Positions 40,346-41,847 of a DNA stretch of 64,000 bases are shown here, one piece after another (positions within the stretch are counted from its first letter, which is position 1; every line of letters begins with the position of its first letter). Source of the stretch: Escherichia coli (GTDB taxonomy: Bacteria > Pseudomonadota > Gammaproteobacteria > Enterobacterales > Enterobacteriaceae); assembly GCF_044324785.1 (NCBI RefSeq), contig NZ_CP172127.1; one strand, 5' to 3'. A model generated the notes under the pieces. It was not told where the DNA came from. It was given only the letters and a program-made list of their open reading frames with translations, and made no database searches. A program made the translations under genes and the position numbers.

Positions 40346-41016
40346 TTTGCGCACTCCTGACGTTTAGCAACATATGCGGCTTGCCCTGAACACCGGGCAC
40401 CACTGTATTGATGCTCATTTTCCATAGCCATTCCCTTTTGTTCATTACATCCATGTCAGTCTGAGACAGGCCTGAATCCTGTCAGCAAAGTATAAAACCT
40501 TACTTGCCTATGAATATCTACTGACTTTTCAGGAAAAAAGTCATGATTTGATAAAAATCATCAAACTCAAAAAAAAACCGCTAGTATATTCTGAATATTC
40601 CGAATAGTTACGTAGATGAAAATACTTGTCACCGCCGCTACTTAATTCCGGTGGGAAATTATTTATTTCCGCATAATCAGCCATGTATTATTTGAAACAA
40701 TTAGTTTGTAAATAATATAAATTGATAACATATCAAATACATCAAAAATACCATTCACAGGCATTATTAATATAGACATCAATATAGCAACATCAAATTC
40801 CAATTAGTAATAAGATATGCTTTTAAATTGCATGCAAATAATTTTAAATGAGCGTTTTTTGATACTTTAGAGTGTTTCCCACCATTTAATATCACCATGT
40901 AGAGTTGATATCACTACAACAGAAACATGCATGTCATTTTTTTACTTCTTTTTTACTACAGAAAAATTTATCTATTTTTCTAAACATCAGTAAAATACTC
41001 ATAAAAGGTAACTATT

Positions 41017-41847
41017 ATGTCTATGCCATTAAGCAATGCCCTTCAGAGTCAAATTATTATAGATGATCACTTCCTTCATCATCCAAAAGTCGACAGTGAG
41101 TTAATACGTAAATATGAACGTGCACGCCTGGATACGGAAAATATCTATCTTCTGCCTCTTGTTCGTGGCAATAACCATAATTACGATGGAAAAAGCGTTG
41201 TCGAAATTAGAAAACTTGATATTAGTAAAGAGTACTGGCCATTTAATTATGTGACAGAAACATGCAGAGAATCCGATGGTATTACAACAACAGGACGTAT
41301 GCTCTATCGAAACTTGAAAATCACCTCAGCTTTAGACGATATATATGGTGGTATATGTAAAAAGGCGCATGCTGCCACAGAGTTAGCAGAAGGATTACGG
41401 CTAAATTTATTTATGAAGAGCCCTTCCTATCCTGTTGAGGACTATACAGTTCATGAAATAACATTAGGCCCTGGTTGCAATGTTCCAGGTTACGCCGGAA
41501 CCACGATAGGATATATTTCAACTCTTCCAACTTCTCAGGCAAAAAGATGGACCAATGAGCAGCCAAAGATTGATATCTATATTGATCAGATAATGACGGT
41601 AACAGGGGTAGCAAATTCTTCCGGATTCGCCCTTGCCGCATTACTTAATGCTAATATTGGAATGGGAAATGACCCAATAATTGGTATAGAAGCCTATCCC
41701 GGTACCGCGGAGATCCATGCAAAAATGGGGTATAAAGTTATCCCCGGTGATGAAAATGCGCCACTCAAACGTATGACTTTGCAACCGTCATCTCTTCCAG
41801 AGCTGTTTGAATTAAAAAATGGTGAATGGAATTATATTGGTAAATAA
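41017..41847 (+). CDS. yjiC: Uncharacterised protein YjiC
   Basis: 276-aa ORF with AAAGG Shine-Dalgarno; AT-rich gene preceded by a ~660-bp strongly AT-rich intergenic region; no recognisable motifs. Confidence 0.7.
   Translation: MSMPLSNALQSQIIIDDHFLHHPKVDSELIRKYERARLDTENIYLLPLVRGNNHNYDGKSVVEIRKLDISKEYWPFNYVTETCRESDGITTTGRMLYRNLKITSALDDIYGGICKKAHAATELAEGLRLNLFMKSPSYPVEDYTVHEITLGPGCNVPGYAGTTIGYISTLPTSQAKRWTNEQPKIDIYIDQIMTVTGVANSSGFALAALLNANIGMGNDPIIGIEAYPGTAEIHAKMGYKVIPGDENAPLKRMTLQPSSLPELFELKNGEWNYIGK

Follow-up and report, generated by a model that had tools for sequence, protein, structure and literature searches.

A probable iraD–yjiC module of foreign composition in Escherichia coli, with a shared control region and a tentatively GNAT-like DUF2686 protein

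The yjiC locus (nt 40355–41847) lies in a 64,000-nucleotide stretch of Escherichia coli chromosomal DNA (contig NZ_CP172127.1 of assembly GCF_044324785.1), which is referred to as the window. The original prediction, made from the sequence alone, described yjiC and about 660 bp in front of it as AT-rich, horizontally acquired and H-NS-silenced DNA. We consider it probable that the locus is part of a block restricted to Escherichia and foreign in composition, consisting of an H-NS-bound iraD control region and a stress-induced yjiC whose product has a GNAT-like core. In this ~2-kb module the iraD operon and yjiC would diverge from a shared AT-rich control region, with the 3′ end of hypT on one side of the whole and that of uxuR on the other. 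An AT-rich, H-NS-bound, foreign-looking locus with an uncharacterised product was already known from K-12. The new observations are the hypervariable first 50 codons of yjiC, the constrained core of codons 116–273, the absence of the gene or presence of its deletion allele in about a quarter of complete genomes, and a modest GNAT-like structural lead. Composition, gene map, distribution, selection and predicted fold were obtained in this analysis, and H-NS binding, promoters and induction are taken from the literature.

When G+C content (GC) was checked against the window average, 40355–41847 lay below it (0.359 versus 0.478), as predicted. The iraD–yjiC spacer (40355–41016) is the poorest part at 0.314 and the yjiC coding sequence has 0.395, compared with 0.485, 0.518 and 0.536 in the flanking iraD, hypT and uxuR. 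GC at third codon positions is 0.307 in yjiC versus 0.59–0.65 in uxuR, uxuB, hypT and iadA. Scored against every 1,493-bp window of the stretch, 40355–41847 has z = −2.16, with 3.3% of these windows as low or lower, and at least five other segments are comparably AT-rich, the minimum being 0.335 near 15.7 kb. The long A/T tracts that had been predicted were also found. The 1.49-kb interval has nine A/T-only runs of at least 10 bases and the entire 64 kb has 110, a ~3.5-fold enrichment, and the homopolymers in the spacer include A9 at 40569 and T7 at 40937. In intrinsic curvature, predicted with a wedge-model script, the spacer ranks within the highest 0.4% of windows of 662 bp. Its most curved part is the yjiC-proximal ~215 bp, with a mean of 10.8 degrees per turn versus 6.7 for the window.

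Most of the spacer belongs to iraD. Two promoters of this gene, P1 and P2, have been mapped, and the leader contains three translated small open reading frames (ORFs), ORF23, ORF47 and ORF27 (PMC5574718). The P2 start is about −138 from the iraD ATG, P1 is ~280 nt farther upstream, and the P1 fusion covered −547 to −413 (PMC5574718). Conversion of these positions to window coordinates puts P2 at ~40483 and P1 at ~40758–40763 on the minus strand. A consensus scan independently gave TTGATG-16-TATATT at 40796–40769, which matches the converted P1. Because the published mapping and the scan coincide, the divergent ytiC-ytiD-idlP-iraD operon has its leader RNA in 40346 to ~40762, which makes up ~420 of the 662 bp. 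The "~660 bp leader" of the original prediction is thus AT-rich as claimed, yet it is unlikely to be a yjiC leader, since ~420 bp of it is the minus-strand iraD leader and ~215 bp is yjiC-proximal. The segment 40801–41016 is the only part able to hold a putative own promoter and 5′ untranslated region of yjiC. The curved spacer would then be an H-NS-bound regulatory region that is mostly transcribed leftward, in the order P1, ytiC, ytiD, P2, idlP and iraD.

The window sequence is essentially identical to the iraD P1/P2-leader of K-12 described in PMC5574718 (99–100% identity in the iraD leader and 97.2% in the proximal spacer; uxuB and uxuR show a synonymous divergence of ~0.13). The published architecture and the CsrA/idlP coupling should therefore apply in the window as well. 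CsrA represses iraD by way of the idlP leader peptide, through translational coupling (PMC5574718, PMC7652899). The idlP stop overlaps the iraD start, and the published CsrA binding sites should fall within 40426–40483. Judged by its 97–100% conservation within E. coli, the spacer does not appear to be junk.

ORF47, which is ytiD, was translated in fusion assays (PMC5574718). The gene ytiC, the ORF23 of PMC5574718, is carried in PMC6001520 as a small protein named ytiB. Its annotated starts at 40764 and 40779 sit at or upstream of the converted P1 start (~40758–40763), and the ORF of PMC5574718 is 23 residues long; transcripts from P1 may not give rise to the longer annotated products. A published HusR (YnfL) binding sequence, assigned to idlP-iraD in Table 1 of PMC12844172, can be read within the leader. 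The 15-mer AAATGAGCGTTTTTT, placed ~85–100 bp upstream of the P1 start, is fully conserved between E. coli and E. albertii and could be a regulator binding site. A search of the spacer for DnaA boxes gave one box only, with one mismatch.

The operon and yjiC respond together. In K-12 treated with azidothymidine (AZT), ytiC was the most induced gene in the genome at 260-fold, followed at the locus by ytiD (33-fold), idlP (18-fold), iraD (14-fold) and yjiC (11-fold), and the induction was LexA-independent (PMC11228462). There is no mention of yjiC in PMC5574718; the divergent arrangement and the co-induction of yjiC became visible only in later RNA-seq. In Shigella flexneri treated with RNA polymerase inhibitors, yjiC was up along with genes of the virulence plasmid. 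The locus is strongly inducible, and "silenced" is too simple a term for it. We propose that rightward transcription of yjiC begins within the ~215 bp left over, stays low during growth, and rises under replication stress along with that of the iraD operon.

The YjiC ORF is as originally described, with 276 residues encoded by 41017–41847. The statement that the product has no recognisable motifs did not strictly hold. YjiC matches the Pfam family PF10887 (DUF2686) with 495.9 bits (E = 3.3e-149; gathering score 25 bits), residues 1–276 aligning to profile positions 1–285, and the family is matched by all 13 aligned members. It also has a paralogue in E. coli, YjfZ, with 40% identity over residues 50–274, and a predicted GNAT-like fold. 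YjfZ (b4204) resembles YjiC in its conserved blocks, its low GC (0.42) and its predicted GNAT-like fold. It differs in that its locus adjoins rplI and its N-terminal 40–50 residues are barely alignable with those of YjiC. YjfZ is reported to be specific to and conserved across E. coli and Shigella (PMC11057252), whereas yjiC is missing or broken in ~25% of genomes.

Structure prediction, one of the checks suggested for YjiC, gave an AlphaFold2 model from a 13-sequence alignment with a predicted template modelling score of 0.65 and a mean predicted local distance difference test (pLDDT) of 60; residues 120–276 reach 65–90. The predicted fold follows the GNAT order beta1-alpha1-alpha2-beta2-beta3-beta4-alpha3-beta5-alpha4-beta6-beta7, and this strand and helix order spans residues ~61–273, with 70–115 poorly modelled. 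Proteins of the GNAT (GCN5-related N-acyltransferase) superfamily bind the acetyl-CoA pyrophosphate through motif A (Q/R-x-x-G-x-G/A), which lies in the beta4-alpha3 loop. The most conserved block of DUF2686, T194–A212, sits on the predicted beta4-alpha3, the place of motif A. From the model, YjiC probably resembles a GNAT acyl-transfer protein in its function or in its shape. Members of that superfamily, among them BH2621 (2qml), DfoC (5o7o), the 7byy toxin acetyltransferase, TacT3 (6g96) and the AHL synthases EsaI and LasI, are 6–17% identical to YjiC, which departs from them in its degenerate motif A, its extra ~50-residue variable tail and its poorly modelled 70–115. YjiC would thus consist of an unconstrained 50-residue tail and a conserved core (residues 50–276) in common with YjfZ, the core most likely having a GNAT-like acyl-transferase fold that lacks the canonical acetyl-CoA motif. 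We infer an accessory acyl-transfer or acyl-CoA-sensing function in stress or stationary phase.

The two parts of YjiC evolve differently. Among six intact alleles, codons 1–50 contain 31 nonsynonymous and 4 synonymous segregating sites, a ratio of nonsynonymous to synonymous rates (dN/dS) of ~2. Codons 116–273 contain 13 and 28, with a dN/dS of 0.15 (Fisher p = 5e-7 against codons 1–50). The core of codons 116–273 is thus under purifying selection, and the tail evolves at or above the neutral rate. With 88.7% nucleotide identity to K-12, against 97–100% in the adjacent spacer, codons 1–50 are the most diverged part of the module within E. coli. This variability is compatible with relaxed constraint, diversifying selection and recombination, which these data cannot separate. 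For the whole gene, dN/dS against K-12 is 0.46, compared with 0.01–0.03 in uxuB and uxuR.

The 2.2 kb around the locus was matched in 5,403 of 5,426 complete E. coli genomes, mostly at 95–99% identity, the closest being strain N3 (99.6%). The gene yjiC is present in 4,895 of the 5,426, and a 44-nt segment of it is kept in 4,077. This segment is removed by a recurrent deletion, 41695–41738 (nt 679–722 of yjiC), with the short direct repeats ATCCCGG and ATCCCCGG on either side. From the difference between 4,881 gene-bearing and 4,077 segment-bearing genomes, the deletion allele occurs in ~804. The count was made with a probe inside the deleted segment, as a junction probe was ambiguous, separate pieces being joined into one match. 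Strain U14A, which shares a 787-bp allele with a sequence type 131 (ST131) strain, lacks the 44-nt segment and carries in addition a stop at codon 12. Insertions of IS1 or IS3 are carried by other strains. Taken together, about one complete E. coli genome in four either has no yjiC or has the 44-nt deletion allele. In our model the gene would be dispensable, with loss or inactivation in that proportion of strains.

It is the entire iraD–yjiC block of ~2 kb that varies as a unit. Strain 536 was compared over window 39982–41987. Its hypT and uxuR are ~96% identical to those of the window, its iraD and leader only 77.6%, and everything from 40610 to 41987 is absent. The missing genes and sites are P1, ytiC, the larger share of ytiD, and yjiC. 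Between hypT and iraD this strain has a gene fragment with the annotation phosphoenolpyruvate (PEP)-binding protein. The identity of the 536 iraD and leader (77.6%) comes close to that between the whole module and its E. albertii counterpart (74%). By these alignments, E. coli carries two deeply diverged versions of the block.

Beyond E. coli the distribution is narrow. A word-indexed search of 5.8 billion proteins, a profile search, phmmer and a genome scan all confine DUF2686 to Escherichia and Shigella. Exhaustive phmmer against 1.84 billion representatives, a library that holds the family as fragments, returned only Escherichia fragments for YjiC and perhaps one 118-residue fragment for YjfZ. 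The scan of 100,044 species genomes matched only E. albertii and a 1.3-kb contig of a "Collinsella" metagenome-assembled genome (MAG); the same scan returned no E. coli locus, and its absences are not fully reliable. The Collinsella contig (JAIJJM010000835.1, 1,283 bp) encodes a product 96% identical to E. coli YjfZ and is almost certainly contamination. No relative was found in phages by tblastn. The plasmid tblastn hits were rejected as evidence of mobility, all being non-mobilizable E. coli replicons of 0.4–4.9 Mb, several of chromosome size. No donor of the iraD–yjiC module was identified in the database-wide protein, genome, phage and plasmid searches. E. albertii shares the iraD-yjiC-uxuR order and the same GC trough; any acquisition therefore predates the split of E. 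coli and E. albertii. The restricted and variable presence fits the proposed horizontal acquisition, and the E. albertii synteny indicates that the module has been resident for long.

Several observations weigh against the proposed module, most of them against the fold. Motif A is degenerate: the sequence is N200-S-S-G203-F-A205 in YjiC, N-S-S-G-F-V in E. albertii and N-A-L-G-F-I in YjfZ, so that all three share the N and the central G, but have N in place of Q/R at the start and differ in the final residue. The predictions are of moderate confidence, based on 12–13 aligned sequences with mean pLDDT of 60 for YjiC and 54 for YjfZ. Residues 1–51 and 70–115 of YjiC are unmodelled or poorly modelled, and for YjfZ the mean pLDDT is 33–43 in four of five models. 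Pfam at E ≤ 10 returned DUF2686 alone and no GNAT family, and a profile search of PDB sequences gave no GNAT. With hhalign, the probability against RimI, SpeG, YjaB, PhnO, ElaA and PanZ was at most 0.8%, compared with 23–97% for single-GNAT positive controls. The high overall dN/dS of yjiC (0.37–0.46) and its frequent loss are compatible with a marginal function. As to the control region, the H-NS motif TCGATAAATT is not enriched in the spacer, H-NS occupancy is known from chromatin immunoprecipitation (ChIP) of the K-12 homologue, and a simple sigma-70 consensus scan found 4 sites versus 7.0 ± 2.6 in shuffles, no excess. The biofilm phenotype discussed below comes from a single insertion, and the accessible part of its source does not mention complementation.

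The only segment that hhalign aligned between DUF2686 and a GNAT pairs YjiC residues 41–53 (41137–41175), ENIYLLPLVRGNN, with FNIAVDPDYQRQG of RimI at the start of motif A. At a probability of 0.7%, and in the poorly modelled N-terminal part, this pairing is probably a coincidence. Searches of NCBIfam, PADLOC and PHROGs with YjiC, YjfZ, IraD and the small ORFs gave nothing informative.

The GNAT resemblance might be an artefact of prediction, DUF2686 being a lineage-specific family of different or novel fold that diverged or arose de novo from AT-rich DNA. The shallow alignment and low pLDDT just listed, the extreme taxonomic restriction and the AT-rich composition speak for it, as does the uniformly negative outcome of the sequence-based tests, in which the positive controls worked. 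For the last reason YjiC was not assigned to the GNAT family. The order of strands and helices in the YjiC model and the position of the most conserved block on beta4-alpha3 point the other way, and we regard an artefact as somewhat unlikely, though a doubt of real weight. Rather unlikely, in our estimate, is a GNAT-like protein that is no enzyme, that is an acyl-CoA-sensing or protein-binding regulator resembling PanZ or the co-induced "connector" proteins, possibly within the RpoS/biofilm circuitry of IraD. A regulator of this kind cannot be separated by sequence from a catalytic protein, the beta4-alpha3 block being the candidate cofactor place in both.

The reading nearest to the original prediction gives yjiC its own ~660-nt AT-rich leader and regards the interval as silent, functionless foreign DNA under H-NS. 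The K-12 spacer, under the name "yjiC(-)/iraD(+)" (526 bp), belongs to the 78 promoter islands listed by Panyukov and Ozoline (2013, PMC3661553), a class reported to be low in transcriptional output. It is marked as H-NS-bound in both the Kahramanoglou and the Oshima ChIP datasets, which answers the suggested check of H-NS ChIP for the homologous region, and it is flagged because it overlaps or adjoins DNA predicted to be foreign (PMC3661553). The window copy is AT-rich, 97–100% identical to the listed island and predicted to be strongly curved. Promoter islands are defined by a very high density of promoter-like start points as computed with PlatProm, a different algorithm from the sigma-70 scan used here. 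The AT-richness, the curvature and the frequent loss and pseudogenisation of yjiC would also agree with silent DNA, and a weak plus-strand promoter-like match at 40722–40749 would give yjiC a ~260-nt leader. However, unlike an inert promoter island, the spacer has two mapped, regulated promoters, and ~420 bp of it is a mapped minus-strand iraD leader with three translated small ORFs. Its conservation within E. coli, the purifying selection on the YjiC core, and an AZT induction among the strongest in the genome likewise argue against this reading, which we consider improbable. The composition, the published K-12 H-NS binding and the restricted, patchy distribution agree with the picture of H-NS-bound foreign DNA, but in view of the stress induction the word "silenced" is too simple. 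No data on derepression of yjiC in an hns mutant were found in the literature.

It is very improbable that YjiC is an orphan GNAT toxin like the tRNA-acetylating TacT, AtaT and KacT, silenced by H-NS because it is harmful: the GNAT toxin-antitoxin systems (TacAT, AtaRT, KacAT) have an adjacent co-oriented ribbon-helix-helix (RHH)/DUF1778 antitoxin and none lies beside yjiC, the upstream small ORFs being on the opposite strand, with ytiC matching PF23685 only and ytiD and idlP no Pfam family, and PADLOC gave no hit at the proteins of the locus.

The module with an inducible yjiC and a GNAT-like core remains our preferred explanation, and an accessory stress role would fit the single phenotype reported. 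A yjiC transposon mutant of an atypical enteropathogenic E. coli strain was biofilm-deficient. The other hits of that screen include fimC, fimD and fimH, and yjiC is ~5.5 kb from fimH (fim operon, 46.4–55 kb). A direct polar effect of the yjiC insertion on fim is unlikely because uxuRBA and gntP separate yjiC from fimH.

The features of the locus are collected in Table 1, the gene map being taken from the RefSeq annotation of N3 and other strains. The hairpin between the convergent yjiC and uxuR is probably a bidirectional terminator; the terminator scan missed it because its loop has 9 nt. An Rfam scan of 39500–42500 at E ≤ 1 gave a single match, the nematode snoRNA "ceN109", on this hairpin. 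The match is weak and spurious, and the spacer is therefore without a known RNA family at that threshold. Two repeats, one direct (13 nt, at 40919 and 41254) and one inverted (12 nt), were discarded, being at chance level for AT-rich DNA.

Table 1. Coordinates of genes and other features at the iraD–yjiC locus (window positions)
Feature	Position	Strand	Basis or remark
hypT	39049–39960	+	RefSeq annotation
iraD, 130 aa, RpoS anti-adaptor	39953–40345	−	Annotation; Pfam GPW_gp25, E = 6.7e-14
idlP, 27 aa, iraD leader peptide	40342–40425	−	Annotation; peptide identical to that of K-12
Proximal iraD leader, P2 start to idlP	40426–40483	−	P2 at ~−138; 100% identical to K-12
ytiD, 47 aa (ORF47 of iraD leader)	40541–40684	−	Annotation
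HusR (YnfL) published binding sequence CCGCTAGTATATTCTG	40578–40593		Read in sequence
ytiC, 33 aa (K-12 form)	40663–40764	−	Annotation; Pfam PF23685 YtiC, E = 5e-27
ytiC, 38-aa form in PGAP records	40663–40779	−	Start at 40779
iraD distal promoter P1	40763–40796	−	TTGATG-16-TATATT, start ~40758–40763; agrees with PMC5574718
yjiC-proximal spacer, ~215 bp, beyond iraD P1	40801–41016		97.2% identical to K-12, 52% to E. albertii
15-mer AAATGAGCGTTTTTT	40846–40860		Three-way alignment; conserved E. coli/E. albertii in a ~50%-identical spacer
yjiC, 276 aa, intact in the present strain, DUF2686	41017–41847	+	ORF; N3 annotation; Pfam
yjiC codons 1–50, hypervariable tail	41017–41166	+	24 of 50 residues vary in six intact alleles; pLDDT <40
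YjiC core common with YjfZ, residues 50–276	41164–41847	+	
Stable hairpin between convergent yjiC and uxuR	41946–41979		RNA fold −16.7 kcal/mol, z = −4.9 versus shuffles
uxuR	41988–42761	−	RefSeq annotation

IraD belongs to the baseplate gp25 family of phages and type VI secretion systems (T6SS), and by this family match it looks like a domesticated baseplate-type protein.

Other parts of the window are also AT-rich, with GC of 0.33–0.40. According to the N3 annotation these islands are the specificity subunit of a type I restriction-modification (R-M) system (11.6–13.1 kb), a hypothetical gene and yjiS (15.7–17.5 kb), a 2.1-kb gene for a pentapeptide-repeat protein (25.4–28 kb), the fimE-fimB-nanC regulatory region (54–58 kb) and hypothetical genes (62.2–63.5 kb). 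The same annotation gives a defence-type cluster at ~4.4–16.4 kb, which contains a BrnA antitoxin with a truncated BrnT, a Fic protein, fragments of GmrSD/DUF262 restriction genes split by IS4, and a complete type I R-M system. It marks btsT and yjiN as frameshifted, which is a statement on N3 and not on the window sequence.

The spacer should be annotated, and engineered, as the iraD control region and not as a yjiC leader. Being variable and often inactivated, yjiC is unlikely to serve a core function and could be of use as a lineage marker. Both yjiC and yjfZ are still without a known function, and the predicted GNAT-like fold together with the co-induction with iraD offers a concrete experimental entry point. 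More speculatively, and with the balance of our judgement against it, DUF2686 might be a diverged GNAT branch restricted to Escherichia with a non-canonical cofactor site, yjiC being wired to the IraD/RpoS stress module and its tail being under diversifying selection from a phage, competitor or host partner. If so, YjiC would act as a modifying enzyme or a sensor, induced by stress and peculiar to E. coli and its nearest kin.

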